From NCBI GenBank assembly GCA_037379345.1, contig CM074520.1, positions 8,866,001 to 8,930,000 on the forward strand: 64,000 bases of DNA. Direction: 5' to 3'. The notes beneath the pieces were generated by a model. It had not been told where the DNA came from. It worked only from the letters and a program-made list of their open reading frames with translations, and made no database searches. The position numbers were made by a program, and so were the translations under genes. Every line of letters begins with the position of its first letter. Position 1 is the stretch's first letter. The stretch comes from Perna viridis. Lineage: Eukaryota. Positions 15,447 to 45,381 of the stretch are shown here, piece by piece.

Positions 15447-16649
15447 TTACCGCTGACAACATCTTAAAACTGATTTCAATGCAGCATAAAATTCTGAATC
15501 TAAAAATGCGTACAAAATAGGATTGACACAACTGTTGATAATATAAGTATGATAAAGCCACAATATGACTAGGAACCATTTCCTGGACAAATTGTCCCAG
15601 AAATCCGGATCAAATCCCTCCAACACCACAATCAAACCGACGGGACAGTAACAAACTAATGATACAGTTGTTACAACCATGAACATTATAGAGAATTTCC
15701 TCTTCAGCTTTTTATTCCGGCGTCTCACATGTGTATTTCGTCTTATTATGGGGTTTTCATTGTGAGCATTCTGTTTATTTTTATTTTTTTCCGCTATTGC
15801 ATTATCTAATTGATAGTTACCCTCTTCTTGGTGGCCCGAATCTGTTATTTGATATTTTCCTTGAACACCATAAGATGTAGAAGTAGTTTCATTGCTGATT
15901 GGTGTCGGCGACGAACTGAACTCGACACCAGAGCTGTCTAATTCTAACTCGTCAGATTGTTTGTCGTTTCCGTGATTGTTTGACTTTATTTTCTTTGATT
16001 TGAACTGACCATAAATAACACACCCTATACTTCCATAGAAAAATACTAAAGCACTCAATGTAAACACGAGAAACCCGACAAAGAATATGGCGTAGCCAAC
16101 GCCTTCGTCGTAATTTGATTCTTTAAGCCTACCACATCGGGTTCCAATCAAAACTTCTTCACTGTAGAAATCATTTATCCCATAGTTAAATAGGAATGGA
16201 ACAGCACTCACAACTGATAGGAAAAATGACCCACCAACCATAGCTCTGCGTACAGACAGGCGGATGGAAATTTTACGGCAGATTAGTAAATATCTTTGAA
16301 GCGCAATGCTCAGCAATATGAATATTGACATAGCCGCTGATATCGTTATAGTGAAAAACAAATACTTGCACAGAATACTGTTTGTAAAATTAGCCTGCAT
16401 GATATCAAGCAAAAAGCAATTTATCGAACCAAAGATAGTGGCAAATATATCAGATAATGCTAGGACCGGTATGAAATATCGCTCAGAAGGAGCATTCTTC
16501 AGTTTTGTCCTGTATACAAGTAACACTAGTATATTCCCAGTAACTCCTATCATTAAATAGACAGACAAAATCACAGCATTGACAACAACATTCTGTCCAA
16601 CTTCTTCATTCCAGTCTTCAAGGAAATTTGACAAATTCAGTGATTTCAT
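15447..16649 (-). CDS. Rhodopsin-like (class A) orphan GPCR, paralog 1, 400 aa
   Basis: Seven hydrophobic segments; TM1 GN, TM2 LALSD, TM3 LCK...IALQRY, ECL2 Cys, TM6 CYCP, TM7 NPILY. Intronless CDS; polypyrimidine AG acceptor at ~16682 upstream of the ATG. Confidence 0.93.
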   Translation of the reverse strand: MKSLNLSNFLEDWNEEVGQNVVVNAVILSVYLMIGVTGNILVLLVYRTKLKNAPSERYFIPVLALSDIFATIFGSINCFLLDIMQANFTNSILCKYLFFTITISAAMSIFILLSIALQRYLLICRKISIRLSVRRAMVGGSFFLSVVSAVPFLFNYGINDFYSEEVLIGTRCGRLKESNYDEGVGYAIFFVGFLVFTLSALVFFYGSIGCVIYGQFKSKKIKSNNHGNDKQSDELELDSSGVEFSSSPTPISNETTSTSYGVQGKYQITDSGHQEEGNYQLDNAIAEKNKNKQNAHNENPIIRRNTHVRRRNKKLKRKFSIMFMVVTTVSLVCYCPVGLIVVLEGFDPDFWDNLSRKWFLVILWLYHTYIINSCVNPILYAFLDSEFYAALKSVLRCCQR

Positions 16650-19600
16650 GTTTTCTTCCTGGACGGTCGTTTACAGAGATTCTAAAACGAAGAAAATATT
16701 CCAGTGTAATATAACATTATTCGTACTATCCGATTTAATATTCTTTTGTTAAAACTCGATCATATAAAGATCTTCACACCTGTCTCATAACGGAAAACCG
16801 ATATGACGAATATGGATAAATTTCCTTGTCCGCAATGCTACATGTAGCTGCTTTATAAAATATATAAAAGTACATAGTAACACTTGTTTAAATATAGAAC
16901 CAAATAAAACACAGCATACAAACCATTCATTTCTGACGTCTTAATCTGACCGATTTATGTGGTGAAATACTATGTTTGTTACATTCTAGATAACTCTACG
17001 AATTAAGTGAAAATCATCTTTTAAATGAATTTCGTTACAAAACCACTTACCTTTTCTTGTATGAAGGAAGTAATCACTGTTAAACTTCTACGTATTAACA
17101 TAAATGTCAGATGATGTTGAGTGCATCCATTCAAATGGTGACATCCGGGAAAATTTGAAATGTTCACATTCTTAAACATGAATGTATGTATGTAAGGGTT
17201 AGTGTTCTCCCACACTCCCGATACTGACCCGTATAACAATCAGGCCAAGAAAAAACTAATTGAGTTTGACTACTTCAAAACCATTCAAATTCATAACACC
17301 CATATGGCGAAATTAAGACTATTGTAATATATTGAACAAAAGACTACCTAGTTAAATGAATGCTAACTGAATGAATTAATTATGCGTACAACAATTCAGA
17401 CTTGTTTGTATTGTTTTTGTCCTTAAATTCAGTAATTTATAGTTGTGCGAATAAATTTATCATCTATGAGGAAAAAAATTAAAAGAAATCTATCAGAAAT
17501 TTACCCTACCTTTATGTGAACCATTGTTCAGATGTCGGAAGGTCATAACGGTTTCAAATGATATATATCTTCTTAGCTGACCAATGAATAACAATTGAAG
17601 TTCGAATCAGAGATTTAAATATTTATGGGAAAATTGTAAAGTTTAAAGCAAAGATTTAGGTAGATATATAATGAATACCTTAAATATCTCTAAGTTAATA
17701 AATAAAATACACTTCAGGTAAAACACGGCCAATTATACATGGATTGACCACATGTAAATAGACAACCTACTAAAAGATGCAAATTGGTGTTTTTAATCTT
17801 CATAATACCATCTTCACCCGTTGATGAACTTCACATACATGTATGTATATACATATATACAAGTATTCTTATGTACTTCGGTATCGTTGTTAAGAACAAT
17901 GTTTAAGTTTACTGTTTCAAACTTCTAAATCATTGAACTTTATGTGAATTGAGCGAAACATAACATGGCTTTAACATACAATATTCATGCTTCTTTCGTG
18001 TGATGTTCACGTTTGTTTCATGTAAAATTCATGTTCCATTCACGCAACTTTCATATACAATTTACGTTCCTTTTACTAGCAATTTTTGTTACATCATTAA
18101 AATTTACTTCACACGATTTTTATTGGAAAATATTAACACGAAGTTTATATAAAGGCTTGAAAAACAGACGTAAAAGCCATTTTTGGCTAAGAACGTCCAT
18201 TCATCTTATTGGTGAACTTAGGTTTAAAGCTTTAAATGAAGGTAATAACAAAATTATCGAACTGATAAACTCTAAGCAATAGTCGAAAGGAACAGTCAAT
18301 TTGACCAGGGTTCTCGATAAGGTGCGTACACGCGTATTGGACGCGTCATATTGAGGTTGCACTATACAGATGCGAATGAGTTGCATTGCTTCGTACACAA
18401 ATCTGACCGGTCTTATGTAGTAAAACTTAAAAATGAATAGTTAAACTTGTTGGAAATTTGGATTGTGGGTAGTAGAGTATTGTGGGTAGTAGAGTATTCG
18501 TACATTAATAGATGCAATACTTGTGAAGATAAAAAGGTGTTAAATGCATGTTCAAAAAGGCTACAAACCACTAATGTCACTTCCTATAGGCTCCAATGCT
18601 AATTTTATTAAATTCAATGTGTTATGAAGCTTCTACCTTAAGTTAAACCTGAAGAAGACTATACATATTAGGTGGGGTTTACTGCCTTGCACTGCGACAC
18701 TGGCTCATAGAAGACAACAAGCTTAGAATGGAAATTTCACAAAAAGGGGTCTTCTTACAGAACTCGTTAAAACATTTAATTCACTAAGTAGCAGTGACCA
18801 TTTTATGTAAAAAATGAAAATAATATAATTTCCTGCAAAACACAAGCTTACCTGTGTAGATCTGATGTGCACTTTTTCCACAGCAACATAACACTATAGC
18901 ACTAAAAGTAGTGTAGGACTATTTCTGTGTACGTTTTAAAAGCTCATTGGTTGAATTAGTGCTATGTGACCTAAAAGCTATTCAGGTCTTTGCTGCAGTG
19001 GGTTCTCTCCTCTGTATCAGCTGGCTGTTTTTCAAAAATGCAAAATTTCGCATGAACTTTAAGAATTAAATCATAAAGAAATCAGCAGAAAAAGGTAGAT
19101 ATATTTTTCTTTTTTTTACAACAATAACATGCCTGGTTACTTTTCATTGCAGTTTTGAAGTGCCTGATATTTTAGAAAATCTGTTTTTTTTTAACAGTCA
19201 AGTTTGAGAAGGCAACCAAATTTGTCATTAACACTGACATTTTTTCCCATTATGTTACCATAGCTAGATTTGTATGACTAAATATAAGAGAGTATCAATC
19301 ATTTTCATGAAAAAGTTTGTTGTATTTTCTTGTTTGAGTGCATCAATAAAGATTTATTTTAAAAAATGTCTTAAAATTAACTGCAGTGGCATATCTACAG
19401 AGTGGATCTTAAAAACATCGTGCGTCGGTGCCTCCTCACAATATCAGCTGCATCATAACATCCGGAATTAAAGAAAAAATCATTAAAAGTATCCCAAACA
19501 CAGTGAAAAAACATTTGTTTGTTCAACATTTTGACAACCAATCAAAATCTTCGTGAGTCGAAGGTGCAAGATACATTTTAAAAAAAATCCAAATAACAAT

Positions 19601-20647
19601 ATCAAGGTAAAAACTGAAAGGTTAAAAACACTGCAAATGTCCTGACTAATTACAGGCTTTCCCGATTGAAATGGTGAGTAAAACCACGTTTTATAGGGCG
19701 CTATACCTCCCGCTTCCATTACGGTTAATTATTTTTTGATAAATAACAAAATGAACGAGGAACACCTAAAAATCATTTGGAATAATTAAGAAAAAAGTTA
19801 TTTTTACTAGTTGTTAATGTTTCATTTGAAGAACTGTCTAGTTCCTATGTACACACTCTCCAAATTTCTGTAAAACAGGGATTAAAATATGATGATGTTG
19901 GCAATTTTAAAGTCTCGTCACGTAAGTCTAAGATTTCACGAGAACGGGCCTTAACTTCCATTAAAGATGATCAGTAGACGTGGTTGTTTATATTGAAATG
20001 ACTACAAACCTCTTTTTCATAAATATGATAACAAAAATAATGGCACGATTTACTAGTTGGACACTATAATAAGTTTTGTAGTAACGATATTTGGAAATTT
20101 TGAAAAGTATGCATCACATTATTGTACCCGGAAGTTGCTACCTAAATATTGGTCGATCTTCTGTTGTACATGCTATCAACAGTAGAAATCATGTGGAAGT
20201 AATAAAATTACGAACATATTTTGCGTGCGTTGACATGAAAGTCGTTTTCAAGCTCTTAATAACTAACAAATGCCAATGTACCTACTGGGCAAATTGTTGT
20301 AATGAAAGTACATTTGTTCTAAGAACATTTTTAATTTCGTTTTTTTTACATTTATTACTTTAAAAGAAGGCATCAAATCAATTGCATTTCAGATTTTTGA
20401 CAAAGTCCAAAGTTTGACGATGTAGTTTTTTTGCGGTCCTTGTTGTTTAGGAAAACGAATCTAGGGATGACATCATATCTGATACAACGGTGTCTTACAA
20501 AATTGACGATTTTCTTGTGATTTTACAACTATTATTATTCTGAATCAAAATTATAGAACTCCTGGTAAGAATAACACGACGTTTAAGCTGATTTGTATGC
20601 GCAAGAGTGTGGAGATGAGAATTGAATGGTGATGTCTTGGTTAGGAA

Positions 20648-20850
20648 AATCAAGGAAACAAGGATTCGAACGGTAATAAAAAGATAATTCTTGATAACGA
20701 TTAAACAGAGAAAATAGACACACACAGAAAAGAACATGAAATAACCAAAAAAGTAACAGGCGCATAGAAACATGGGCAAATGAGCAACTCTGACTACTAA
20801 AAACTGGGAGTAATGACCAGGCGCACTGGTAGGGTAAACGGCCTCTGTTT
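20648..20850 (+). mobile_element. Copy of a dispersed non-autonomous repeat (family of 41461-41900)
   Basis: aatcaaggaaacaaggattc...gcaaatgagcaactc...gaccaggcgcactggtagggtaaac. Confidence 0.7.
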
Positions 20851-21083
20851 TGCTCGCCGATTTTATCAAAAAAAGCGTCATGTCAGCTATCCCTTAAGCA
20901 GTAGTTGAATGGTACTCTTCATATTAATCACTTTTATAAATTGACTTTGTGAAAACCCAAAAACCAAAGTTTTACCATGACATTGTCAATAACATAAATG
21001 TAGTAGAGCATTCATTTTTTTTTGGTCAAAATAAGTCACTGTGATTATATTTGATTTTATGTTAAATGTAAATTGAACAGTTT

Positions 21084-21443
21084 TATAAGGATATATATTG
21101 GTGAAACGGTGAAAAATAACCAACAACTTCATCAGTAAGGATATATATTGGTGAAACGGTGAAAAATAATCAGAAAACAACATCATTAAGGATATATATT
21201 GGTGAAACGGTGAAAAATAACCAACAACTTCATCAATAAGGATATATATTGGTGAAACGGTGAAAAATAATCAGAAAACAATATCAATAAGGATATATAT
21301 ATATTGGCGAAACGGTGAAAAATAACCAACAACTTCATCAATAAGGATATATATTGGTGAAACGGTGAAAAATAACCAACAACTTCATCAATAAGGATAT
21401 ATATTGGTGAAACGGTGAAAATAATCAGAAAACACCATCAATG
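21084..21443. repeat. ~50-bp minisatellite, ~7 copies with two unit variants
   Basis: taaggatatatattggtgaaacggtgaaaaataa followed by either ccaacaacttcatcaa or tcagaaaacaacatca. Confidence 0.92.
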
Positions 21444-21973
21444 AGAAAGTTCTTCACTTACAGGCATTTCTTTGTTGGTGATATTGCATTTGACAGTGAA
21501 TATATATGTCCAAGATCCAAGCTGAATATTTATGTAATTTGATATGGTTCATTATTAAAGCTGTGTGTACATGTATCAGTTTTGAGATTTATTAATTAGA
21601 TTTTACATCAAAATCGAAAACACCCACTATTTTTTTTTTACAGCTTTGCCTTGAAGATCCACAAAAATGTCAATAAAACTTATTCAGTATACCAGCATGA
21701 CCACTCATTGTCATGGTTTGGTCAAAACCGCAAATCCAAATTCCAACCGAAAGGAAAAGTTTCTAATATGAATTTTTTTTTCAATTACGTTTAAATCTCC
21801 ACGAACTAACAAAATTTTGAAGAAATACAAAATCTGATATCCATTGAATAAAAATATCTAAAGTGTCTGGTTAAGTCTTCATTTTCTTGCTTGGTCATAA
21901 TTTGAAAATATTCTTAATGTTTTCAGGTCAAGTTAATATAAATCGTCTTGTTTATATATTCGTCTTACCAGTT

Positions 21974-22469
21974 ATATATTATAACTGATCCATCCTGCCG
22001 ATGTGGTGCTAGCATTGAAGATTCAAATCATTTTTCCTTTGAATGTCCTCACTATTCTGATACATGTATTAGAAACAGACTCCTTATTAATCTAAATTGG
22101 TTACCGGAAAATTGTCGAGTAAATTTAAGTACCTTAACGTGTGGTCACCCGGCTCTTACCGATGAGCAAAATACAATAATTTTTAGTCATGTATATAATT
22201 ATATAAAAGGATCCAAGAGGTTCCATATTGTATAATCAGTATCATTGATACTGTAAGTATATTTAAAACAACCACATACATCATCACATCATCACAATAT
22301 TTGCTAGTTATATCATGTCAATATTATGTTTATATATTTATTGTATTGTTTTTGCTTGATTTCAATATGTATTGTTACACACTGTATATGGGAGAAGACT
22401 TAATAAGTTTGTCTAACTTGTGTCTAATCCCTTTTGCATAATTACGCAAATAAAATATGTATAAACTAA
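21974..22469 (+). mobile_element. 5'-truncated LINE (CR1-group) 3' end with 11-bp target-site duplication
   Basis: C-terminal ORF2 motif SCRCGASIEDSNHFSFECPHY...YIKGSKRF (stop 22235); 3' UTR with aataaa at ~22449; TSD tcttaccagtt at 21963-21973 and 22470-22480. Confidence 0.85.
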
Positions 22470-23187
22470 TCTTACCAGTTCTTATTGGCCGATCTAATAT
22501 TGATCCCACTGAAGTATCTCCATGTTGTTGATTGAATATATAGATCTACGTAGATTGGAGAAATAAAGATTGACAGGTATATTACAGATTTGACCATCAG
22601 CTACACTGATTAGCGTAAGAATGTGTGACAGACAATACATTAACAACGAATAGAAATTACTGGTATAAATGTGACATTCTCGACACAATTCCATTTTAAT
22701 ATACCTTATAAACGCACGACCATATTAAAGATGTATTGAAAAGTTATGAATAATGTTTGAAACTGTCGATTGTTGTTTGGGCGAACACTACATAGGCCTA
22801 TATTTTGCTTGACAGAAGGGAGGTAATCGCCACCCTCTTTAATAGCTAGACACGTATAAAAAAATCCTTTTAAACTTTGCACAAATCTGCATCAAATTAG
22901 AGAATGTAAACTTGAGACCAAAAATTACTTTCTTAATAAATTCAGTAATATCTTAAATATCACTTTTCCACCAAAGACTTATACGGTGTGTGTAATATGT
23001 TCCTGTCCATTAACACGAATTTAATGTTTCCATGTGTTTGTTGCCACATATTATAGCGGGATATCATTTAATGCCCAATTAGACGTTATTTTTTTCAATA
23101 TACAAGCGCAAGATTTTTGCTATTTAATTCTATTATACAATTCATACATTCATCACTAGAATTACACGTTGACGTAGTCCAAAATAG

Positions 23188-23423
23188 AGTAGGGAAACGC
23201 TTTCGGACCCACGTGGGGTCTGTGAATAGACCAGAGCGTCAACAGAGCAGCCCAGTCGCTAGTATAACATACTCTGACTGAGTTCTTCGGTCAGATATCA
23301 CGAAGGCTGGGCTCCGCTTACTCCAAGTACTAACATATATCTACTAACAGAATCCCCGTATGTGGCGGTCGTGCGAGGTCCGTAAGGATAGTCAAGGTCG
23401 TAAAAGCACTCAATCATCATCAT
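23188..23423 (+). mobile_element. GC-rich, highly structured element with a (CAT)n tail; probable SINE body or retroposed structured RNA
   Basis: Multiple nested stems (see findings); ends ggtcgtaaaagcactcaatcatcatcat. Confidence 0.5.
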
Positions 23424-23687
23424 GCATCCATTTATGAACTATTTTATTACATTTACAAACCAGCTGTTCTTTTGATGAGTTTATAATCATTTTTAACTAA
23501 GAAGTTTGTTATCTCATCTTTCGTTTCACACCTTTGCTTTACTATTTATCAGCAAAATTACTAAAAATAATTCACGTATACTTAGCTATTTATACCTTTA
23601 AGTTAGTTGAATTACTTATTTTGTTTAATTTGTTTGGTTCCATATTTATAACGGACCAAAAACAACACCACCACCAACAACATAACG

Positions 23688-24315
23688 AACAAGTGATACT
23701 GCAAGCAAAACACAAAAGTCGTCAAAACCGGCAAATGGTCGGATTTAGTCGAATTTTGGAGCTGCCATTGAATGAAGAAGGTTGTGATTATCCAAGAAAT
23801 AAATTTTCATTGAAATCCAACTATGTTGACATTTTGCCAATTTTGGCGGTTATTTTGAAAAAAAAATGGCGGCTTTTTGACAAAATTTGAAGCCGCCATA
23901 GCATTTAGAATGTCATGTTTACCCTAGAAAACAATTTTCAATGAAATCGAACAATTTTGAAAATTTGACGATTTTCTAAATTTTTTTTTACGCTTATGAT
24001 GTCAGCAAGTCAAAATCAGTGTTCTCAGTTTTTTTTATACAATTAATGAGTTCCACTAATTTTATAGATTTTTTTTTATTTTTTCGGGTTTTGTATTGGT
24101 GGTCGTCTTGAAATTCCGGAATTAGCTTGCACACACCCTGAACATGCATGATTTTCGAGCCAAGTATGGTATGAATCGAATAAAACGTCTCCGAAAATAG
24201 CTAGGACATCTTTACGCGCAGAAGAAGTATAATAATTATAATAATAAAAGTAATAATAATAATTAGCGGAGCAAAAACAACAAGTCGTAAAACTTCGTTT
24301 TGGCGACTTAATAAC
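23688..24315. mobile_element. HINE/DINE-like element with (AAT)n microsatellite and terminal hairpin
   Basis: Subterminal aagtcgtcaaaac (~23717); (aat)n at 24229-24263; terminal hairpin aagtcgtaaaacttcgttttggcgactt at 24282-24309. Confidence 0.6.
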
Positions 24316-24541
24316 TATTCCTATTTCAGTTCTTTAGAAGTTAAGTTATTTTAATAATTTATTACAATAGCCATGTTGAGTGTGTATATTTGAAGTTGAA
24401 AAAAAAACAAGACGCAAAGACGTCTTAATAAAATAAAGACCACACAGTCTTTTTATACAAAGAAAAAACAAGTTCGCAATTAAGCCGAGAGGAAACTTTT
24501 TTTTACATAAATTGACCCGGTAAAATTTTTAAGCGCGTGTT

Positions 24542-25813
24542 CTATATAGATTTAAATATTGACTTGAGAGCAGTTTTGAATTCTCGATCAAGGAAAGCAT
24601 AGATTATTGGATTTGCAATTGAATTAATGATGTACGTATGGTACAACCATGTCACTATGATGAACTCGTCCTTTGACAGTTCGTCCCAAAATGTAGGGTG
24701 AACTCCTTCCATAACTACAATTACTCCAACAGGCATATAACATATCAGTGAAACAGTCGTAATGATTATAAACATTATTGAGAATTTATTGCGTAGTTTT
24801 CGATTACGGCACTTAAGATGATTTGATGTGACTATTGCTGATTGGACCTTTGAGGGTGCACCAAGTTTAGGGCTTTGTCCATGACTAAGGTTCGTGTGCT
24901 GATCACTAGGAGATAAATTTTTGTTCGACAGTGTTCCTCTATTACTTGCACTTTCAGTTTCTTGGCAATGATGTGCTAAATTGATTTTGATATAACTAAT
25001 ACCGAAAACGTTGTCAGAACGATCTATCTTTTCATTTGTCCTTTTTGTGTTGTCTTTTTCTTTTATTGGTTCGGTCTGTGGATCATCTACGATTGCATTG
25101 TCTGCTGTGTCACTTGTAGAGGGTGCTTCAATGTGTTGTTTAAACCTCTTCGAACTGAATTGTCTATAAATGACACAACCAACTTTCCCGTACAAAACAA
25201 CCAATAATGAAACGGTCATGATCATCAATGAGCCGAACAGTATTGCGTAAACGGTACCAAACGTCTTGAATCTCTCCTTCGATCTGCCACATCGATTCCC
25301 AACAAGAATTTCGTCGCTGTAAAGTTCATTTATATCGTATATTACACTGAAAGGTGTGGCAAGACAAGCGGCACCTATACACGAACAAAGAACCATGACT
25401 CTACGATATTTCTTTCTGAGGTTGTATGTCCTGCATATTAACAGATATCGTTGAATAGCAATGCACTCTAGCAACAGAATGGACGTGTAAGCTGTTACGG
25501 AAAGAATAAACAAAAGACTTTTGCAAAGTGCAACATTTGTAAAATTCTCATTCATAAAATCCCAAATACCACAAGATACAGAACCGCTAATGGTAGCACA
25601 CAAGTCTGACATAGCAAGAAATGGTATGAAATATCTCTCAGCGGTGGTGTGGTTAATGTGAAACTTATAGACATACAACACGAGGATATTCCCAACAACA
25701 CCAACGACGAAGTAGATTGTAAGAATTGTTAAATTCGCTGTAAGATTCCCGGTTACTTCATTTTTCCAGTGTTGTAGAAATTTTTCCGATTCATTCGATG
25801 AAATCTTTTCCAT
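24542..25813 (-). CDS. Rhodopsin-like (class A) orphan GPCR, paralog 2, 423 aa
   Basis: 7TM; GN, ERYFIPFLAMSD, LCK, IAIQRY, RCG, CYMP, NPIIY. Closest to paralog 1. Acceptor ttcttacag at ~25845. Confidence 0.93.
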   Translation of the reverse strand: MEKISSNESEKFLQHWKNEVTGNLTANLTILTIYFVVGVVGNILVLYVYKFHINHTTAERYFIPFLAMSDLCATISGSVSCGIWDFMNENFTNVALCKSLLFILSVTAYTSILLLECIAIQRYLLICRTYNLRKKYRRVMVLCSCIGAACLATPFSVIYDINELYSDEILVGNRCGRSKERFKTFGTVYAILFGSLMIMTVSLLVVLYGKVGCVIYRQFSSKRFKQHIEAPSTSDTADNAIVDDPQTEPIKEKDNTKRTNEKIDRSDNVFGISYIKINLAHHCQETESASNRGTLSNKNLSPSDQHTNLSHGQSPKLGAPSKVQSAIVTSNHLKCRNRKLRNKFSIMFIIITTVSLICYMPVGVIVVMEGVHPTFWDELSKDEFIIVTWLYHTYIINSIANPIIYAFLDREFKTALKSIFKSI

Positions 25814-26919
25814 TATTATCCTCTTTTTCTTGAACCTATCAATGCTGTAAGAAAAACAATGATGTTTTTTAGCAATGCTTTTATTGTAGTTAAACCAAAG
25901 ATGTACATGTATTTATAAAAAAGGACAATAATAGAATGTCATATCAATTATATTTCATTCTACGTTCATAATTATGTTATTAGTACAAATTGTGAGTTTA
26001 AGTTATTGGGAGCAGTGCTTTGATCATTTTGTTTTGATGTTATGAGAAACTACACTGATCCAGAGTTTTATGTAGATTAATGAAAAATAAATTTATATTT
26101 AATATTTACTTACTTTCGTTGAAAATGCTTCCTTCTTTACTTTCTAGAATATCAGTATATACTATTAATTACTCCAAATCTATCAAATATTAATTTTGAA
26201 TATAATCCGAACAAGGCTTATATCTGAGTTCTTCATTTCAAATAATCCGTACCTGTCTATGATATACATTATACAGTCCTCTTGAGGAAATGCTGCTAAT
26301 GGATGATTTATCAATCAGAAACTTTGTCAATACAGACACGATTTATATATTATATCAATTTTCCAGACCACTTTTAAGGTGACTATGATACTAGCAGTAC
26401 CAATACACTTGTGTAAACTATAACAAAACTAAGAATGATAGAAGTTGGCTTTTGATAGTTGATAATTAGACGTTGGATTTTGTCAACGTAATTAATAGAA
26501 AGCTATTTGATGAACTCACGTTTTAATCTAAGTTATATGTAATTTCTAAGTGGAATTTCCCTTATGATTTATGACGTGAAATCAACAACACAAATATAAG
26601 GAAACATCGTTAATTATTAGAATATATCCTGTTATATTCTTATTCCTTTTTGAGTATTGGTAATCCTTCTTACGGCAGCTTTTGCAACTGTCAACTGCAA
26701 CCTTCAGAAATGCGTCTTCTTGAGTTAATAAATCTACTGAAAGTAATGGTTTAACAAATGCTGTAGGTATTGTTCATGAATTCACTTTTTATGTCTCATT
26801 GCTGGTAGTACACGGAAATTTTAAAGAGTGAAAGGTGAATGATGCGATAACTCTTTCAGAATGTCTTATTAACTTCAACCGTCCTGAATTTTCTCCACCT
26901 TTACCATTCGAGACCTTTG

Positions 26920-33492: not shown

Positions 33493-35205
33493 TTACCATT
33501 TTCGGGAAGATGTTTCGCAATTAATACAATGAATTATAAAGCAATTTTTCCGATAATGTTCCTTAACGTATACATATAACGCACTGTTTTACATAGATGC
33601 CCATCGATTTGATTTTATCATAAATTTACGTGTAGACCATATATACATATAAAACTTCAATAAAACGTTTGTTTACGTCTTCAAAATTAGTAACTGTAAC
33701 AGAAAATTTGAACTTATGTATTCGGAAATGAAAACTAATTACGACGGTGAAAATAGAGAAAAAACGACACATTGTTGATCATCCTGTTTCCTGACCACTT
33801 TTGTATCTTTACGGGACAAAATGGGATCATTGCAACATCGACTTTAACAAGGATTAAATATGAATTTTCAACCAATGACTGGCATTGTTTAAAAATCTGT
33901 CTTATCTGCTACCATTTAGAATGGGTTTAACAACACGTAAACAACGCTGTAAAAATAAAATGTCTGAAATTTTAACTGAAAATAAATGGTCCGCTTCTTG
34001 AAGCAGACCAAGCAATAACAAGGATACTAAAAAGACAATAGACATAAACAACTTGTACAAAAAAGGGAATTTGATTGACATAATGGAGCAGTTGGAATGT
34101 TTTTACATAGGGTCAAGAATATTATACTCGTTGCATTTCTCACGGAGTTAAGTTGAAAGGTTTCATCTTCCGTCAAATCCTAAATAATGGTCACCATAAA
34201 AGACAGGTACCAATGTGTTTCTAATGTCCTTAATTTCATCTTATGGGATTAGATGAGATGAAGACAGTCAGAAACCAAATAGAATGTTCATAGAAAAAAA
34301 ATCATCTACACAAGAAAAGCTGAACTTACCATTCCAATTCGCGTTCATTAGAATTTAGATAAGCATAAGAGTGCAGAAAAAAGTAGGCAAGCAAAATTGT
34401 TTACAATAATTGCACACCGTGATGCTTGTTTAATCATTTGTACTCATCTGTACATAAATGTTTTCTGTAAAAAGGGTTAACACTGTAATGATTCCATCAT
34501 ATGAGTATTTGTCATTTTTTAAACAAAATTAGATCAATCTGCGTTTACTGTTTCCTTAAGAGTTAAGTATGAACATAAAATTAACTGTACTTGTAATTGC
34601 GGGCATTGCCATTAGATATTAGATAGAATTATAAGGATGACAAATCGAAAGTTATATTTTACTTAATAATGAAAGAGACCTAAATATAAAGATTAAAGTA
34701 AACATCTAAAAAGAAATTTGGTAGTACACTTGGATGGCGAAATAGTGAAACGCTCTGTGTATGGTTAACAATGAAGTTTGTGTCTTTTCTAAAACGTTTT
34801 AGCTATGTTCTACGTGGGGTTATCTTGTGCTAATTATCAATTAAGATATGAGAAAGCATCATTCTGATACTTTGTGCCAATGTTAATTTCTTCATTCATT
34901 ACGTTGGAAATGTATAATTTAACCTCATTAGGTAATTTTCACTTATGACCATCTCACATAAGCGGATGGCGATTTAAGAACGATTAAAGTGTTGACTTTC
35001 GAAGTAATATAAATCCGATAAAAATTCTGGGAGCTAAAATATGATATTAACACTAAAGGTTACTTAAACAAAATCAACTAATTTTGAAAAACAAGAAATC
35101 AAATTTATTGGATGTGACAAAAATAATCTTTTAATTAAAAAAAAAAACTATTTGCACGCACAAAAGATTTCTTCACTGGGTTCCTAAAGATAGTGAACTA
35201 ACACA

Positions 35206-35422
35206 TTAAGGAGGTAGACCTAGGCTAAAGGACACAACTCTTACAGATCATTGGATCGTTTGTATTCAGCAGTTTACATCAATTTCATGTAAGCATCAAA
35301 GTAACTTGGTCAGATTTCATTCTGTTTCAAATGAAAGCTTGATAGGCTTTGGTGAAATTGAATATGAAACAAGCATACCACTGATTTCAAGAGTTTTGCC
35401 CCTTACCCTAGGTCTACCTTAA
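35206..35422. mobile_element. MITE with TTAA target site (Kolobok-like)
   Basis: ttaaggaggtagacctagg...caactctt mirrors aagagttttg...cctaggtctaccttaa. Confidence 0.7.
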
Positions 35423-36408
35423 CACAATTAATCCCCCTTGATTTTCGTTGTATACTAAAATAGTTCCAACTTTGGTAGTAGGTACCTTCCACATTTTTTC
35501 ATATTTTTACTGGAAAATTATATGCTGAAGTTTTGCCTTTAATTGGTAGAAAATAGGTTTACATGGGCTTTTTTCATTTATCAATTCTGACTAAAGTTGT
35601 GATTTGGTTCAGTGGAAGAAGGTTAAAATCTAGGACTTTTAACTCAGTTCATTTATCATGTTTACCCCATCTCCGGGTCATATGTATTAATTTCAGAAAA
35701 TGATGGTAAAACTTTCTACAATTTACATATAAAATCCTGTTTGTACATATCTTTAGGCCAGAGAAGTTTTATTCAGTTTGCGTCGGTGGAATTTTTAAAT
35801 CTGCTCAACTTGAAAATTGATTATGGTTTTGTGCTTCCTTAAACAGTGTTCTTGTTAGAAATGACATTTATATGAGACAAAATTGTATTTATTATTAAAG
35901 TTTTATTGCCAAGAAAAGAAAATATCAGGATACGGAGACTACACGACTGTTAAGGTAACGTCATTCATAAACTAAGTATATATAGTATTGAAATTGACAA
36001 AAATGGCAGAGAATTTCTCTGATTTTTTAAAATCTTAAAGTACTAGACTAAGTATTAGTAATTCACAAATAAAGGATTTCTAAGTCTGAATATTCAATAC
36101 ATGATGCGAAATTAAATCTAAATAGTATCATTAAGTTCAGCTTAAGTCAATATTTAGGACATTCCCTTAATGTAATGTTTTCATTCAAAGTTTTAATAAT
36201 ACATTCAATTAAGCGCTTAAACATTGCTAAATGCATCTGTATATGCATTTCATACACAGGCATAAGTCAAATTAAAGTACTGAATTTTGTCGCTCGTTTT
36301 GGCAATGATCATCAATGCATTATATGAGTTGATCAAATAATCTTATATTAGGAGTATTTTTCTGATCTAAACTGCATAATCTCACAAACATTTCTGTTTT
36401 CGCCCAGC

Positions 36409-37590
36409 TTATTTGTTAGGATTTTGTTGGCGCCGAAACATCCCATACAATGCACGTTTAAAGTCTCCATCCATTGAAGTGTAAATAAACGGATTAATAA
36501 TATTGTTAATGATGTATGAATGATAGAGAAACAACAATACTGACATTTGTGATGATGTCAACGTTTCCCAAAAGTTAAGCTCAAGACCCTCCAGTATTAG
36601 CAATGTCGCAATTGGTGAAAAACAAATTAGAAAAACGCTTGTTATTACCATAAACATTATGGAGATTCTATACTTCATACGCTTGGCATGTCTTTTTAAT
36701 TTTTCTGAGACATTTTTATTTTCTTTGTCAGGAACAACTCTTTCGACACCAGATTCCATATTATCACATCCTTCTTCACTCGACTGGAGGTTTTTTAGCA
36801 TTGCGTCACTTTTTGGTCGCACTTGCTCTTTTTCTGTCCCAGCTGCAATGTTATTATCGTAAACGCTGCTTCTGTTTTCTATGTGTTTTAAATCCAGATC
36901 TTTTCCTTCTTTTCTTTCTCTGCTCTGCTTAAGCCGTTTTGAATGTAATCTGATGGTATACCCAATGCGACCGTACAGAATGAGAAAAGAAGAGAACATA
37001 GTTAAAGTTAAGGCAGACACCACTATACCGTATGTAACCCCTTCTAACTTTTTGCCACATCGTTTTCCGATATATTTTCCGTCTCTATAATAATCAACAA
37101 TCCCATACATTACGGCAAGGGGTGATGAAAGACTGACAGCACTAATTATTGCAGTAACTAACATGATACGTCTCCATTTTAGTTTTAAACTTTGATTCCT
37201 ACATATTTTCATATACCTTTGAACAGCGATACACAATAAAACAAAAACGGAATTAAACGTTGAATTTCCAATGGTATAATACATAAACTTGCACAATATT
37301 TCATCATCAAAGTCCAACTGTATAAGGTCCCATGCTATGCTCATTGATGTACAAATCATACAAGCTATTAAATCTGCCCATGCCAGAACTGGTATAAAGT
37401 ATCGCTCCTCCGACGTTTCTCCCATTCTGAATTTATAAACCACCAACACAATAGAATTACCTATAACACCTATAACTAAGTATATAGAAAGAGCTACAAC
37501 ATCTAAAGTGACATCTAGATGATGTGTGTCTTGCCATGATATAGAGGTATTACTTGACAGGTTTGTGATTGAATTTTCGTCAAAATTCAT
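36409..37590 (-). CDS. Rhodopsin-like (class A) orphan GPCR, paralog 3, 393 aa from the first ATG
   Basis: 7TM; GN, ERYFIPVLAWAD, LCK, IAVQRY, RCG, CFSP, NPFIY; N-terminal sequons NLS and NTS. The ORF-track start at 37599 is GTG; the ATG is at 37590. Acceptor at ~37619. Confidence 0.92.
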   Translation of the reverse strand: MNFDENSITNLSSNTSISWQDTHHLDVTLDVVALSIYLVIGVIGNSIVLVVYKFRMGETSEERYFIPVLAWADLIACMICTSMSIAWDLIQLDFDDEILCKFMYYTIGNSTFNSVFVLLCIAVQRYMKICRNQSLKLKWRRIMLVTAIISAVSLSSPLAVMYGIVDYYRDGKYIGKRCGKKLEGVTYGIVVSALTLTMFSSFLILYGRIGYTIRLHSKRLKQSRERKEGKDLDLKHIENRSSVYDNNIAAGTEKEQVRPKSDAMLKNLQSSEEGCDNMESGVERVVPDKENKNVSEKLKRHAKRMKYRISIMFMVITSVFLICFSPIATLLILEGLELNFWETLTSSQMSVLLFLYHSYIINNIINPFIYTSMDGDFKRALYGMFRRQQNPNK

Positions 37591-38654
37591 TTTAGACACA
37601 AGTTAAGCTTTGGAAACTCTGGGATACAAATACGGAAATAAGTATATTGTATTCAAAAACTTCCGCTTGTACTAATGACAATTAGCTGTAATTTATTTTT
37701 CAGTTTATTCAAGTATTCATTATTACATATAAAACGTCGCTACCTAGATGTACAACTATACGAAGAGAAGGAAGATTTCATATTACTTGATTGTTTGCGA
37801 TTAACTTTACACGTCATCCCTTTTACAATTCACCAAATGGTTTATAAGTTTATATTATCTTATATAAAATTCAAATTAGGCTGAGTATATGGTATAGCTC
37901 AATTATAAAAAGACTTCCTTTAATATCAAATTCCTCTGCATATGTTCTTCGTACCCGTCAAAAGAAACAAACAATTTGAGACATTTGAACCCTATCTTGG
38001 TCATATACGTATAAAAACGGACATAAAATAATGAAAAAGAAGACGAACACAGTTATCCCAAATTGCACGGATTTCATTTCCTGAAATACCAACATCTTAC
38101 AGATTTATCAATCCAACACAGTATACTGCTTTGGCTTGATCGTTACAAGAAATAAGAAATACCTATACAGATACTCCGAATGCACCATCCGAAAAGTAAT
38201 GAATAGAGTCATTTGGTACTATAGATGTACAACAGTTCAATGTAAATAACCTCGTTTACCTACATTTTTTCTGCAAAATTTAAAAAAAAATACAAAGTCT
38301 TATCAAGACTCATAGAAGTTATGATGTAGCTTAAAATCTCACAAATGTTGACAATATAACTGTCAAAGCTGAGATTTCCCTCCAGCCAACTTCGATATAA
38401 TTATTTAAATATGATAGGCATAGAAATATACAAGTCATGAAATGTCTCAGTCGGTCATATCAGTTTTACGTGAAGAGCGGATGACGCTCAGTCTACAAAT
38501 AAACCATCCTAATGTTTTATTTTGGTTTTTTTTTGTGTGTCTGGATACAATATCTTTCTCCGTTATGATGTATCCATATGCACTAGAAGAACCTATTTGT
38601 TCACTATGTCATAGTTTTTCTTTCCTCCTTCATGTACCCTGGACATGACACTTT

Positions 38655-38880
38655 ATGATCAACTTGGCGGCTGCTTCAAGAAATGAAGCAGACGCTGACC
38701 CTACCGGTGCACCTGGTCCATACTCCTAATTTTTTGTTGCTAATTTACTTTTGTGTCTATTTGCGTATTATATTTCGATTATTTAATGTTCCTTGTTGTG
38801 TGCGTCTATTTTTTTATTCAGATGTTATCACTGTATTATGTTTTTTTTTATTACCATTTGAATCCTTGTTCTCCTGATTT
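38655..38880 (-). mobile_element. Copy of the dispersed repeat (family of 41461-41900)
   Basis: gaagcagacgctgaccctaccggtgcacctggtccat...aatccttgttctcctgatt. Confidence 0.7.
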
Positions 38881-39018
38881 CCCTTGGCTATATGTGTGAC
38901 CGTGGTATCTATGACTAACAATTGCTCTTATATTTTCTATTTGATGTATGATTTCTGAATGAATAATTTCGGTAAAACAGATATGAAAAAAATATGAAAC
39001 ACTTATTTCTAGTTAGAT

Positions 39019-40407
39019 TCACAAGCACCGTAACAGTCTTTTTGCTGCATTTCTGAATTCGAGGTCCATAAAAGCATAAATAAATGGATTTGCGATATTG
39101 TTTATAATGAATGTCCGATATAACCAAACTACCAAGCTCGCCTGTGAGCGAGAAAGTCTTTGCCAAAAATCTGGATAAAACCCTTCCAGTGTCAAGATGG
39201 ATGATACTGGAATAAAACACACAAGGAAGACTGTTGTAACTACCATAAACATAAAGGAAAACTTGTTCATCAAGCGACGGTTCCGCTTCTTTTTACTGTT
39301 TCTTTTCTTTTTCTTTGGTGTAAGATTATCCGACGTTGTGTCGAATGACGCCAAAGAGCCTGCGGAAAATGACGTTGTTGATTTCAGCACATTTGAGCCT
39401 GTGTCATTCTCATAAGACATTCTATTATCAGACGACGAACCAAACCCAGCTGTTAGCACTCTATTTTTGATTATTTGTATTTTGAGTAAATTGATACCCG
39501 AACTTGATGTGCTTTGTAATTTTTTTTTCTTCCCATTTAAATTCGAGATCGGTTGTGTTACCGAGTATCTACCAGTTTCTATATTCGAAAAAGCCCGACG
39601 CCGTTGTGTAATATCACTTTCACTCTCTTCGGTTTGTGATGTCTCTGAAATCCCTTCGTTTTTGCCTGCTTTAGATGATAAAGTTGAGTGTTCATTTTCT
39701 GATTGATTGTTCGCATTTCTATTTTGGAGCTTTTTGAAATGTTTATAAATTGCAAAACCAATTTTCCCGTACAAAATTATGAACGAAACATATGTACTGA
39801 AAATAAAGGCAGAAACAACTATTCCATAAGTTGCTCCAACAAGGTGATTTTCATATTTCAGTTTGTTGCAATTTGATGAAATTATTGTTCCATTACTTTT
39901 TAAATGCACTATTCCGTACGTCAGACATAAAGGTATAGTGAATGAAATGGCACAAAGCAGACACAATAAAACCATAACCCGCCGAGTTTTTAAGCTTAAA
40001 GTTTTCTTCTTGCAAATTTTCAAGTAACGTTGAATAGCTATACACAGTAAGAGGAATATTGACATGTATTCGGAATTTCCCATGAAATAATAGACAACTT
40101 TACACAGGGCCTCGTTCGTGAAGTTTTTCTGGTAATAATTCCAGACGATACCAAGTGATGAACACGTTACACATGCGACCATGTCTGAGACGGCTAAAAC
40201 TGGAATAAAATATCGTTCTTCTGACGATCTGTTCATGTGATTTTTGTAAACCAGAATGACGATCGTATTTCCAACAATGCCTATCAGCATGTAAATTGAC
40301 AATGTCACATAGTCAGGAATCGTATCTCGGTCCCAGTTGAATACGTCCATAGCACCTCTCTTAGGCAACGTACTGTAAGTTGTGTTTGAGGCAATACCCA
40401 TTTGCAT
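39019..40407 (-). CDS. Rhodopsin-like (class A) orphan GPCR, paralog 4, 462 aa
   Basis: 7TM; GN, ERYFIPVLAVSD, LCK, IAIQRY, CFIP, NPFIY; long Ser/Thr-rich ICL3. Acceptor ttcttatag at ~40420. Confidence 0.93.
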   Translation of the reverse strand: MQMGIASNTTYSTLPKRGAMDVFNWDRDTIPDYVTLSIYMLIGIVGNTIVILVYKNHMNRSSEERYFIPVLAVSDMVACVTCSSLGIVWNYYQKNFTNEALCKVVYYFMGNSEYMSIFLLLCIAIQRYLKICKKKTLSLKTRRVMVLLCLLCAISFTIPLCLTYGIVHLKSNGTIISSNCNKLKYENHLVGATYGIVVSAFIFSTYVSFIILYGKIGFAIYKHFKKLQNRNANNQSENEHSTLSSKAGKNEGISETSQTEESESDITQRRRAFSNIETGRYSVTQPISNLNGKKKKLQSTSSSGINLLKIQIIKNRVLTAGFGSSSDNRMSYENDTGSNVLKSTTSFSAGSLASFDTTSDNLTPKKKKRNSKKKRNRRLMNKFSFMFMVVTTVFLVCFIPVSSILTLEGFYPDFWQRLSRSQASLVVWLYRTFIINNIANPFIYAFMDLEFRNAAKRLLRCL

Positions 40408-41162
40408 ATATTTCTGCGTCTATAAGAAACTGGAATGCGAGACAACTTTAACAGTTTTCAGTTTATTAATCCTTAAGATGAAGCATTTGTGTATATTGTT
40501 GATTATGATGTTACCAATTTTATTAACATCCTTGCTTTTTCTAATCGAAACATTTGCACGTTGTATATGAACAACTTCGGAAATTATGAGAATTACATCG
40601 CGTTTCCGATTTGTTGTGATTGTGTTTATTTTTTCTACTTAGTATTTTTATACCGTACTTCCGAACGTCACACGTCCCTTTCGTCCTTGTCATGTAGTAT
40701 GACTAAAAGGAAATCGTACACAAGATCCTTGTAACTTTTTTATTGAAGTGATTTATTATTATTTTTAAAAATATATCTATATTGAGTGTATCTGTAATTC
40801 TATGTAAATAACGTTATTTTGTTGACGAAACACGACAGATGGTCTATCAGATGTTTTACTATCGCTTTGCAACCGTTGTCATCAATTGTTTATGTCGCAC
40901 CATCTAACAGATCAATAGATTTAGGATAAAGTTTGTAAACCTTGTAATTGAGAAGGGTGTATTATAGAGTCAAATAACTAACAAAATACAAAAGAAAACA
41001 TAAACGAATTAGATTGAATTTATTGTCATTGTAATAACAAAAATAATTATATTTATCTGGAAGAAAACTACATTCTCTCAATGGAAATACAAATGATACA
41101 ATTGTTTTACAAGCAGCTGCATGACTTCGTTAACTTTATGAGTTTTGCTTTTTTTTCTTCAG

Positions 41163-44100
41163 ACATTGACACAGTTACTACTTTTATAAGAGTGGTCGTA
41201 ATTTCAAACAGTACAGGAACGCTTACACCCAGCCAAGCATGCGCATTAACGTCTACTCAACCTACTGGTACTCAGGAAGTTTTGATAAGGACAGGTATAG
41301 TAAAATGAATTGCATATCTATACGAGTATATTTAGTATTACTAATAATAAATGCCAGGAATAAAGGGAAGATTTTATTCTAATTTCTATCCCTTAGTCAG
41401 TATTAAACATTGTTTATCACGCTTACCTATTGCATAATGTCACATGTATAAGTGTATGAATAATCAAGGGAACCAAGGTTATAGCGGTAATCAAAAGAAT
41501 GTAATCCAGGGGCAAAGACCAGACATAGAAAACAGACATACACAACAAAGAACATAAAATAACTAAAATCATACATACAGAATGACAAAAGCAAATGAGC
41601 AACTCGGACTCCACTAAAACATGGACCAGGTGCACCGGTAGGGTAAGCGTCTTCTACTTTTTTAGAAACACCCACCGAGTTGCTCATAAAAGTCAAGTCC
41701 GGGGTAGACAAACGAGGAACTTTAAGGAAAACCATGACCCGTTGAATAAATCAGTTTTCATGGTGCAGGTGGATACACTAGCATAAAGTATGAGTTGTGA
41801 TATGAACATTCCATACACAGGTGCTGAAAGGATGTTGTCACAGATGAAAGGAAAGTTGACAATTCTGATTAAAAAGTCGTCACGTTGGTCGTAAAAATTA
41901 TATTTTTCATTTAATTTTCAGATTCTGTTTCGTCTTCTACGGTTAGCTGTCCTGGGTCTCTTAACTTCAATTTAGCTGCCATCATTCAATCCTCAGGTTG
42001 TAGTGGGAGTTCTATCCTCGGTGCTTCATCAGTTACTCAACATACTTACTCGTACTCTTCATGTGTCACATCTAAGTACTCAAGTAAGTGTAGCTGTCGT
42101 GCTTTAATTTAAATACGAAGGGTGCAAAGTGACTTACAATGGTAAAATCATGACCATTAAATATTTGATATTGATATTATAATATTTTCTATAGATGCAC
42201 TAAATAGCAAACTCCAACACATATAAGACGCTGAAATGCAAACTTAGAATACGCTTGTTATACTTAAGTCGTACTTAGTCGTAGCCAAACCGTAGAAAGC
42301 ATCACCGCTGACTGCGTACTTTAATTTGTTTTAGGTAGAGGTATATTTGACTGTGTGTATTCTGTCACTGAAGGAGCCTATACCTATGTAAATGTATTTA
42401 ACAATGATACAAGCGTCGATGAAACAACAACATACAGGTATCTCTGTTATGTAAGTTTCAAATTGGTAATGCATTACGAATATTAATGGCTACTTCAATT
42501 TTGTATTCAAGTAATATTTCGTATCGGTTAGTTTGTAATAATTTCTTATAGACTTTTATCTGATAAAGACAGCTTTGACCCAACTAACCTAAAAATTAGA
42601 CCTATCAATTTTTCCATTCATTTATTGTATGTATAGGGTATTACAATACTCCATTCTACTTTCTGTTCTGATGACCTTTCTGATCAACCAATCAGATTTG
42701 ACCTTCCATGATTTTGAAAGCATTATTCAAAGGAAACAAAACAGAGGATTCTGAAAAGGTCACCTGAACAGAAAGTAGAATGGAGTTTTGTTAGATCCTA
42801 TTTGCTGTGACTGAATTGAACAATTGATAGGTCTAATTTTAATTATATTGTGACTCAACAAAAATGTTTGTGCACTAAATACCTAATCAAAAAAGCTATA
42901 TTAGTTTTGTCTGATAAACACTTTGTCCATTATTTAATCAACATCTATTTAGTTAGGTAAGCTCTGTTACAGAGAATTTCATTCGGTAACCTACTCGTCA
43001 CATACATCTTTGAGATCTGTTTTGAATTGCGTCATCTTTGTATAAATATATATAAATATAATTATTATTTCTATGTTCAGGTAACGTGGAGTAGTGGTAA
43101 CATTGTGTATTATACATACCACCCAAAGATTTGCCAACCGACACAAACACCGACGGTTACTGGGTCCGACGACGGCGTTGCTGTCGTCGCCTATTATAGT
43201 AAGTTATAAGACAAATTCTCGATCAACATCGTTTTGAGGGGAAGTGTCATTTAAAGGCTGTTCATGTAAAAATCAGACAGATCCTTTGATATTAGTGACA
43301 CAGGGTAAATTTTATCCAACTGTTCCAATGTAATGTTTATGCCATATGTAAGTAAAAAAGTATAAAGTTCGTTTTGAATCGACAACGAATGGCTCAGAAA
43401 ATTGTTTTAAAGTTCCGTAACAAAGCAACCAAATTTTGCTCAAATCAAAGAGTTGTCTCCCTTGTACCAATGAATTTAATGCTTTCTACGTAATTTATTT
43501 TTCTTCAGTCACTGCAGTTAATCCAAAACCAACATTCAACTTTGAGAAAGAATGCATTTTTGATATGAAATGAATGAACATGTTTTTGAAACAGAATTTG
43601 TCTTGAGCCACCCACTGCCTGGTTTTTGCATGGATACCTCTTAAATAAGAATATTCCTAACCTAGAGCTGAGGTCAAATTCAACTAAAATTTGAATGTGT
43701 AGCAAACATGATATATAAAACATGATATAAAGTATTACAGATTGAAAAGAAGGATAATCTACTTTCAGTGCAAATCTACAGTGGTTTCGACCAATTGACA
43801 GTAAAATATATACCGTTATAAAAATTAAGATGTTTCGGTCTTTAGAAATTAACATAAAGATATAAACGATTCCCTTATTATACAATAATTCGATAGTTAA
43901 ACAATTAATGTGTGATATTTTAATAGGCCATTGAAATCCGTCATATAGGTCTGTATTCCTTCCTGGTTATCAATCTATTTGTTTTAGGTTTCTCTGACGA
44001 TGTAGCCAGCCAAATAGCCGTTGGGGTAATGTTTGGCTTGATTTTGTTAGCTTTAATCATTGTAACGGTAATTTTTCTCGCCCTGTTCCTTGATTGTCGT

Positions 44101-45381
44101 CAAAAACTAATTAAGGCTTGTTCAAAGAAAAAACTAAAAGAAAGTTCAAAAAAGACAAAAGGGGATAGTACAAATAGGAAGAAAACAGACAAGAAAAAGG
44201 AGAAAAGAGATAAGAAGAAAAAGAAAAAGAAAGAAAAAGTGGACGAAAACCAGAATATTGATGCATCCACAAAAGTGAGACGGAAAGACTCTTTATGGGA
44301 AAAGGTCAGTGATCATTTTTGATGACATCTTCAAAAATTGTAGTAAGTGGTTTTTATTTTGAATTCAATTCTTTTTACTTCGTAAATCTTTCTTATGAAG
44401 AATTTTATGTTTTATTAAAGAAACAGATCGGCATTTGGCAAATTCGGACATATCACAACAATTGAAATTAAAATTCGAACATAATTGAAATAAGAAAGTA
44501 GTGGATATTACTTGTTCATAGATTTTTTATCTTTCATTTCGTTTTCTTTTCACAAGGAAAAAGAAGGTGAAGGACATATGAAGTGGGCGGATTTTGTTGG
44601 AATTAACTCAAGTGCTAGGGAATATAAAAAACCTGTATGTCAATGTATTACAATTTAATTCCTCTGTATAGTATATGCTATATGTATGCTCATCTTAATA
44701 CTTTGTTTGACCTAAACTAGGTACAGAAATTTGATAGAATTATGATAAAACGAGAATTCAATTTGAAATTGTTACCCCGTTTATTCGAATCTTTCCAAAA
44801 AGTGTGTTTTTCAACTTTACTTAGTTTTTACTGTAAATTAAGACACTTACTCCCGTTACACGTGAAACAGTTGGATTTCTAAAACAGTACTTTTAGCGAT
44901 ATCTTTTGAATGTTCTTTTAAGACAGCATATTGTAATTGGTACTAACATATACACGGTTATCTAAAAGTTTGCATTTTATTTCTAATTCTGTCAGGAAAA
45001 CGTATATCTATATTTAGTGGTAATAAAATTATTTTATTTGATTTTTTCTTTTAGGAATGGCAACAAAAATGGGAAGATTATAAGGATCCCCTACGGGGGA
45101 AAACAATAGTATTCGATGGGGGTTCGGAGACAGCGCGGAGTACTGATTCCGTGGCTAGCACAAGTAAAGTTGTCTGGATTTTACCAGAAAAAGAGGAAGA
45201 AGAAAGAACTAAGAGTCTTTGGGACAAAGTATATCGACTGTGGTTTGAACCAAGGAAAACTATACCAGAAAATAAATTTCTAGAAATGCAAAAGTTAGCA
45301 AAACTTGCCAAACCAAAACATGTCCGGTTTAAAGGCACGGTAAATAAGAGTAAAGATGATACTGCTATTGAGAGCAAATGA
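41163..45381 (+). CDS. Cys-rich type I membrane protein, paralog D (5'-incomplete; exons 1-3 not found)
   Basis: Manual GT-AG model: 41163-41294, 41922-42083, 42335-42450, 43081-43198, 43988-44304, 44557-44634, 45055-45381. Continuous frame of ~415 aa: ...SQACALT...SCPGSL...GIFDCVYSVTEG...YRYLCY...PKICQP...TM (IAVGVMFGLILLALIIVTVIFLALFL), then a Lys-rich tail. Confidence 0.8.
41461..41900 (+). mobile_element. Dispersed non-autonomous repeat, longest copy in the window
   Basis: taatcaagggaaccaagg...gcaaatgagcaactcggactccactaaaac...gaccaggtgcaccggtagggtaagcgtc; at least 7 related copies in the window. Confidence 0.75.
42592..42840. mobile_element. MITE with long TIRs, in an intron of paralog D
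   Basis: aaaattagacctatcaatt mirrors aattgataggtctaatttt; actccattctactttctgttc mirrors gaacagaaagtagaatggagt. Confidence 0.8.

Follow-up and report, generated by a model that had tools for sequence, protein, structure and literature searches.

We analysed a stretch of 64,000 nucleotides from the Perna viridis genome (assembly GCA_037379345.1; 723 Mb, 46 contigs), which spans positions 8866001-8930000 of contig CM074520.1 (here C10) and is called the window below. The analysis extended to 140 kb of sequence before the window and 60 kb after it, and N bases were absent throughout these 264 kb. The window carries four G protein-coupled receptor (GPCR) genes, GPCR1 to GPCR4, on the minus strand, and most of a multi-exon gene, D, on the plus strand, which has paralogs A, B and C. 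An earlier note had taken the exon at 41163 for exon 4 of D and had found no convincing exon 2 upstream of it by eye. It proposed either that exons 1-3 lie beyond the window, with a single intron, over 41 kb in length, around the four receptors and a long interspersed nuclear element (LINE), or that D has lost its first domain and uses a new start. We observed that D is not a truncated gene but one of ten exons with an intact frame. The first three exons are found on its own strand, 5.7-8.8 kb upstream of the window. In the following list of its parts, 0 is the base before window base 1 (C10:8866000), negative coordinates run upstream from there, and L001 stands for C10:8856001-8866000.

Exon 1: L001:1222-1407, plus strand, ATG at 1356; outside the window, upstream.
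Exon 2: L001:2068-2248 (window -7932..-7752), plus strand; found by tblastn with A-C and by the family profile.
Exon 3: L001:4223-4323 (window -5777..-5677), plus strand; matching exon 3, upstream of the window.
Intron 3: C10:8860324-8907162 (window -5676..41162), plus strand; GT..AG, 46,839 bp, the part in the window being 1..41162.
Exon 4: 41163..41294, plus strand; joined to exon 3 by RNA contigs.
Exon 5: 41922..42083, plus strand.
Exon 6: 42335..42450, plus strand.
Exon 7: 43081..43198, plus strand.
Exon 8: 43988..44304, plus strand; transmembrane helix and a lysine-rich stretch.
Exon 9: 44557..44634, plus strand; 78 nt, from RNA-contig joints.
Exon 10: 45055..45381, plus strand; coding part up to the stop codon.

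For comparison, paralogs A and B were rebuilt from their coordinates as minus-strand genes of 453 and 429 aa with nine exons each, and six exons of C were rebuilt in the same way. The exon at 41163 indeed corresponds to exon 4 of these genes. It has a strong acceptor (AG after a pyrimidine run), the same 1/1 phases as in A-C, and a length of 132 nt against 117, 117 and 105 nt, and it begins 756 bp from the first ATG of GPCR4 (40407), close to the 750 bp noted before. Within the window, the motif scan, tblastn and the family profile gave no family-type exon 2 on the plus strand before 41163. The earlier note had suggested a tblastn search of the upstream sequence with exons of A-C, and this search found exon 2 of D at the position listed. 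A scan for exon 2 on the plus strand (140 kb upstream and the window to 41163) left three exon-shaped candidates after the motif filter, one of which was the family exon; the two others were dropped as repeat-like or lacking the family pattern. A profile of 29 family proteins matched D at exon 2 (E 2e-8), exon 3 (E 0.012) and exon 6 (E 1.2e-13), and gave no further plus-strand ectodomain exon before 41163 over the same 140 kb and window. The coding part of exon 1 (window -8644..-8593) is signal-peptide-like, as read from L001. The joined coding sequence is 1,584 nt long and encodes 527 aa, all nine introns are GT..AG, and the intron phases of exons 1-7 are the same as in A and B. The exons further downstream, which had been described as intact, proved so in the rebuilt frames and in the GT..AG joints of contigs. 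The third intron of A, B and C is 630, 786 and 306 bp long, respectively, against 46,839 bp in D.

We then assessed the splicing of intron 3 using contigs from the sequencing runs X1, X5, X7, X13 and X18, which were taken as RNA-derived owing to their GT..AG joints (none is catalogued as RNA). Contigs of X13, X1, X18 and a DNA-sized run, X15, were placed on L001:600-4600, and those of four runs (X13, X1, X5, X7) on window 35500-45800. The exon 1-2 and exon 2-3 joints were seen in X13, X1 and X18; the DNA run X15 had neither of these two joints and read through the introns. In all three non-DNA runs, the loose end behind L001:4323 was the first 30 nt of the exon at 41163 (compared by eye). One X13 contig of 2,243 nt has exons 1-3 at record positions 1779-2243 and all later exons, beginning with exon 4, at 109-1781, and a 765-nt contig of X1 likewise links exons 1-5. 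GT..AG joints between the downstream exons were also present in the contigs placed on 35500-45800. Intron 3 of the host gene is removed by splicing in RNA. Together with the upstream tblastn match, the exon 3-exon 4 joint established the first of the two earlier proposals, exons 1-3 beyond the window and a single intron around the receptors and the LINE.

A few features of these data weigh against this account. The X1 and X18 contigs have the same lengths and near-equal depths and seem to be a single data set entered under two names, so that the joint between exons 3 and 4 is probably backed by two independent data sets. The D contig listed for X5 begins in intron 4 (41839) and shows no exon 4-5 joint. 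That contig, and an open frame with three in-frame Met codons that runs into exon 4, would fit a D without its first domain, starting between GPCR4 and the exon at 41163. The intact exons 1-3 and their splicing to exon 4 refute such a start for the main transcript, although a minor internal one would be compatible with the unstranded contigs; as an explanation of the locus we give it hardly any credence. Just as little credence can be given to an assembly error, or to trans-splicing that makes the junction, with receptors that are not truly intronic. It is true that no single read or contig extends across the 46.8 kb and that intron 3 is repeat-rich. However, exons 1-3 and 4-10 lie on one strand and in order, on one 42-Mb contig and in an N-free region, exon 2 of D has one match in the genome search, and receptors and host-family proteins are near each other in Mytilus records too.

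The contents of intron 3 were as follows.

GPCR1: 15447..16649, minus strand; single open reading frame (ORF), 400 aa.
GPCR2: 24542..25813, minus strand; single ORF, 423 aa.
GPCR3: 36409..37590, minus strand; single ORF, 393 aa.
GPCR4: 39019..40407, minus strand; single ORF, 462 aa.
Dead GPCR1 copy: about L001:6659-7670 (window -3341..-2330), minus strand; inside the intron, upstream of the window.
Decayed GPCR fragment: 32891..33186, minus strand; a weak match (E 6.9e-5).
Young LINE: 8796..13443, minus strand; ORF1 (RBD-like), endonuclease and reverse transcriptase, broken into several ORFs.

All four receptor ORFs lie wholly between exon 3 (-5677) and exon 4 (41163) of D, and these ORFs and both dead copies are on the minus strand, opposite to D. 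Where the earlier note had given the nested arrangement a span of 15447..45381, the nesting stood and the extent did not, as the intron of 46,839 bp begins 5.7 kb upstream of the window. Its inventory of four GPCRs and a LINE was correct but incomplete, the two dead GPCR copies and the 78-nt exon at 44557-44634 being unlisted. Class A GPCRs are marked by a DRY-like motif after the third transmembrane segment and NPxxY in the seventh. All four receptors have QRY and NPxxY at these places, and the 7tm_1 profile (PF00001, cut-off 30.5 bits) matched the four ORFs from 1 to 260 of its 260 positions, with 92.8-106.7 bits. As judged from their sequences, the four minus-strand ORFs are class A (rhodopsin-like) GPCRs.

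The dead copy is related to GPCR1: two blocks align with it at 90% and 86% identity, single nucleotides have been deleted at two places, and the middle is missing. Its mismatches to GPCR1 are distributed as 25/17/54 over the three codon positions, a skew which indicates that the copy was under selection before it broke. The reverse transcriptase of the LINE scored 91.5 bits, and a 1-kb query from this element matched at least 15 other places in the genome end to end at 94-99% (best 40 of 228 candidates); the LINE is therefore young and its insertion recent. A pair of 345-nt inverted repeats (86%) was also seen by the downstream end of the LINE, at window 3573-3915 and 8068-8409, within intron 3. 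Poly(A) hexamers occur downstream of each receptor; they were not counted, this DNA being AT-rich and such hexamers frequent in it.

The contig placement covered the GPCR3/GPCR4 stretch, GPCR1 and GPCR2 lying outside it. GPCR4 was covered by an unspliced X13 contig (38840-40559) and by pieces in X1, X5 and X7. For GPCR3 there was no contig cover in three runs, which was not counted as evidence. Since the contigs are unstranded and give neither a start nor an end, the independent transcription of the receptors is not settled by them, a further point on the opposing side.

We also examined the history of the receptors. GPCR1-4 are 31-47% identical to one another (GPCR1/2 versus GPCR3/4, 31-35%), and their family in this genome has at least 142 match rows (best 92 of 606 candidates), with arrays on C1, C2, C8, C11, C13 and C14. 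An own-genome tree of 29 rows was made from the four nested receptors and 25 non-nested ORFs, taken from 20 stretches hand-picked among the higher-placed of these match rows; two non-GPCR ORFs had been removed beforehand. GPCR1-4 fell inside one 7-row clade of the 29 (support 100/99), and GPCR1 and GPCR2 were sisters (support 100/99). A mixed tree of own receptors and 34 of 82 database relatives (63 rows, a quick tree with the careful search unfinished) gave the same clade with 21 of the 63 rows (99 in the Shimodaira-Hasegawa-like approximate likelihood-ratio test, SH-aLRT), and Mytilus proteins were interleaved in it. If these Mytilus proteins are orthologs, the duplications would be older than the split from Mytilus. 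The trees hold no deorphanised reference receptors. A shared and well-supported clade is consistent with an old local duplication, as far as the sequences go, and the question of a single origin is not settled by it.

The same trees bear on whether the nesting is real but the receptors arrived on more than one occasion, for instance as a GPCR1/2 and a GPCR3/4 lineage. The low identity of 31-35% between these two pairs fits separate arrivals, as does the interleaving of Mytilus proteins and of three non-nested own paralogs (C10:16.75 Mb and two at C11:30.01 Mb) within the clade of the receptors. These paralogs also count against a single local origin, and so does the nested label, which needs two changes on the own-genome tree. 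On the other hand, the four receptors sit together on one strand and in that one clade of seven, and the three outside paralogs may have left the array. Forcing GPCR1-4 together cost 2.08 log units, with a p-value of 0.405 in the approximately unbiased test; a clade of the four is thus neither rejected nor shown. Taking both sides, we regard several arrivals as unlikely.

The closest named relatives of the window proteins are from Mytilus. GPCR4 has relatives at 73-74% and at 56-58% identity, and the one at 56-58% is found in four Mytilus species; in three of them it adjoins, by accession, a relative from the GPCR1/2 clade. The Mytilus receptors of this same expanded family are automatically named CCKAR-like, opioid-like, 5-HT-like and orexin-like. 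These names conflict within one 90% cluster, which makes them automatic labels and not indications of ligands. The four nested receptors are probably class A orphans that belong to a GPCR expansion in bivalves.

We consider it very probable that D is an intact ten-exon gene and that its spliced intron 3 of 46,839 bp holds four intact and two dead antisense, intronless GPCR genes, likely as a result of repeated local duplication. A single intronless founder gene would have settled antisense in a once ordinary intron 3 (306-786 bp in the paralogs). It would have been tolerated because its poly(A) and splice-like signals are not on the strand of the D pre-mRNA. Unequal crossing-over could then have led to the birth and death of copies, by old events for the four receptors (31-47% identity) and by later ones for the dead copy of GPCR1. 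Transposons would have lengthened the intron. The receptors probably act independently of their host, each from a promoter of its own in the intron, and the arrangement itself would be neutral.

Antisense receptor genes nested within an intron of a host gene have been described before and are not very unusual; the D locus is a new example. P2RY12, P2RY13, P2RY14, GPR87 and GPR171 form a tandem antisense GPCR array in MED12L (the literature passages found do not state the nesting); that array differs from the D locus in having vertebrate nucleotide receptors and a Mediator host. Gene predictors tend to split such layouts. A close parallel is seen in vertebrates, where an intron of CASK carries GPR34 and GPR82 on the opposite strand; they are reported to have been kept there for 450 My (PMC3247265). 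As at the D locus, the host has many exons, and a single intron of it contains several class A GPCRs in antisense orientation. Unlike the D locus, with four intact and two dead receptors, CASK has two, the hosts are unrelated, and mammalian GPR82 has 5' non-coding exons whereas none were seen for GPCR4. More generally, the D locus belongs with the nested genes described for Drosophila, where whole genes sit inside introns of other genes and usually run antisense to them. In the fly, 9.5% of genes take part in nested structures; 71.27% of the nested ones are antisense, and a nested gene and its host show less co-expression than neighbouring genes do (PMC3814207). A search of literature listings (subscription papers and supplements lay outside it) found no paper on this locus and none on bivalve GPCR arrays that are nested in a host gene; supplements of genome papers may list the arrangement. 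The D locus provides a clean, RNA-backed birth-and-death GPCR array in one antisense intron of a mollusc. Its layout makes the host look truncated; this host, an uncharacterised membrane protein, now has a corrected gene model. The locus could serve as a small test bed for the co-regulation of a host and its nested receptors; on present evidence it suggests no new mechanism.

The host protein itself was also evaluated. D is a single-pass protein with a signal-peptide-like start and a basic tail. Its membrane helix lies near residue 304 and is preceded by 12 cysteines, two of which belong to the signal peptide. P0123 and P0254, both from freshwater mussels, group with D (SH-aLRT 98). Exon 2 of D alone scored 18.1 bits with DUF7043 (cut-off 27), and 8 of the 11 full-length homologs scanned exceeded the Pfam cut-off of DUF7042 or DUF7043. 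By sequence comparison, D is a homolog of the DUF7042/7043/7044 proteins along its ectodomain, with shared exon phases. Like D, these proteins (PF23069-PF23071) have a signal peptide, two cysteine-patterned beta domains and one membrane helix. The same literature search found no paper that mentions DUF7042, DUF7043 or DUF7044.

The predicted structure we used was that of P0254, the likely ortholog, which is 29% identical to D over 440 columns; the fold is not D's own, and this tells against what is read from it for D. The model (mean predicted local distance difference test score 68.4, predicted template modelling score 0.55; ectodomain mostly 77-96, tail of low confidence) shows a beta-rich ectodomain and one long helix. 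Foldseek gave no match to it at E <= 0.001. VIA-align returned lipocalin-like barrels, mostly for the second domain (best Z 9.6, root-mean-square deviation (rmsd) 2.7, 97 aligned; many rows at 6-8); these matches are at or near background level and say nothing on function. Among the look-alikes were Tp0751 (5jk2) and APCDD1 (8e0p; Z 6.9, rmsd 3.6, 116 aligned). On this model, D probably sits at the cell surface and carries two lipocalin-like barrels of the small-ligand-binding type; that it binds a small ligand at the cell surface would be a guess.

When we examined the linkage in other bivalves, the relatives of GPCR4 and of the GPCR1/2 clade had consecutive accessions in three Mytilus species. 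In M. coruscus (CAC5359699 / CAC5359707) and in M. californianus (XP_052089678 / XP_052089653), a host-family protein and a clade receptor have close accessions and lie on scaffolds of identical length. These accession neighbourhoods, from which nesting was not read, suggest that the linkage of receptors and host family has been kept in Mytilus. A search with the last exon gave no ortholog of D itself there (of 127 candidates, 0 were scored), nor did a separate set of 127 proteins contain one (best long matches 32-33%), and of 7,069 candidates in an alignment search two were scored, both unionid. Metagenome scans for receptor loci with their flanks gave 220 and 55 pattern matches, none of them confirmed. 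No second pair of host family and receptor was seen among 14 DUF7043 places compared with the at least 142 receptor rows; this is a lower bound, and the genes of the window itself were not picked up by the DUF7043 search. In 178 kb of sequence around 25 further receptors of the family, no host-family ectodomain exon was found under E 0.7 (short stretches, again a lower bound); the profile matches under E 0.7 sit on columns of the membrane helix and tail.

The linkage might be kept by function, with D as a membrane-tethered ligand presenter or accessory partner of the receptors, or with shared enhancers. The neighbours in the M. coruscus and M. californianus records and the predicted lipocalin-like barrels with one membrane helix would agree with this. 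Microsynteny within one bivalve family is, however, expected without function, a nested array cannot readily leave its host, nested pairs in flies are less co-expressed than neighbours (PMC3814207), and the 25 other receptors had no ectodomain exon in their short stretches. Functional coupling therefore appears improbable. A bolder version, in which the mussel family has kept throughout its history a module where lipocalin-barrel D houses the receptors that it serves (by ligand delivery or surface transport), is a long shot. If true, it would give the DUF7042/7043 family a function and offer a handle on the large bivalve expansion of orphan GPCRs.

Further members of the host family were seen next to D. 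D (plus) and C (minus) stand tail to tail in window 45055-45908, and the last exon of C, with the membrane helix, at about 45906-45707, is 325 bp from the D stop. An unspliced contig piece runs from the last exon of D across the D/C gap in all four runs, and three of the four records end 108 nt past 45800, at the C acceptor. The 3' ends of D and C likely overlap, the strand of the contigs being ambiguous. A decayed duplicate of exon 7 of B lies in the next intron (window about 51940-52056, minus strand). Gene E, at window 71228-75047 on the minus strand, is a full member of the host family. 'F' is a lone host-family exon 2 at window 78441 on the plus strand; the sequence up to window 124,000 gave no clear later exons for it. 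Just after this exon, a single ORF of 631 aa (window 80306-82198, L016:6306-8198, minus strand) has B-box and weak NHL matches, and it may be another nested gene. Elsewhere, at C9:14.60-14.72 Mb, three open frames of 661-712 aa gave whole DUF7043 matches over the cut-off and are apparently intron-poor relatives of the host family.

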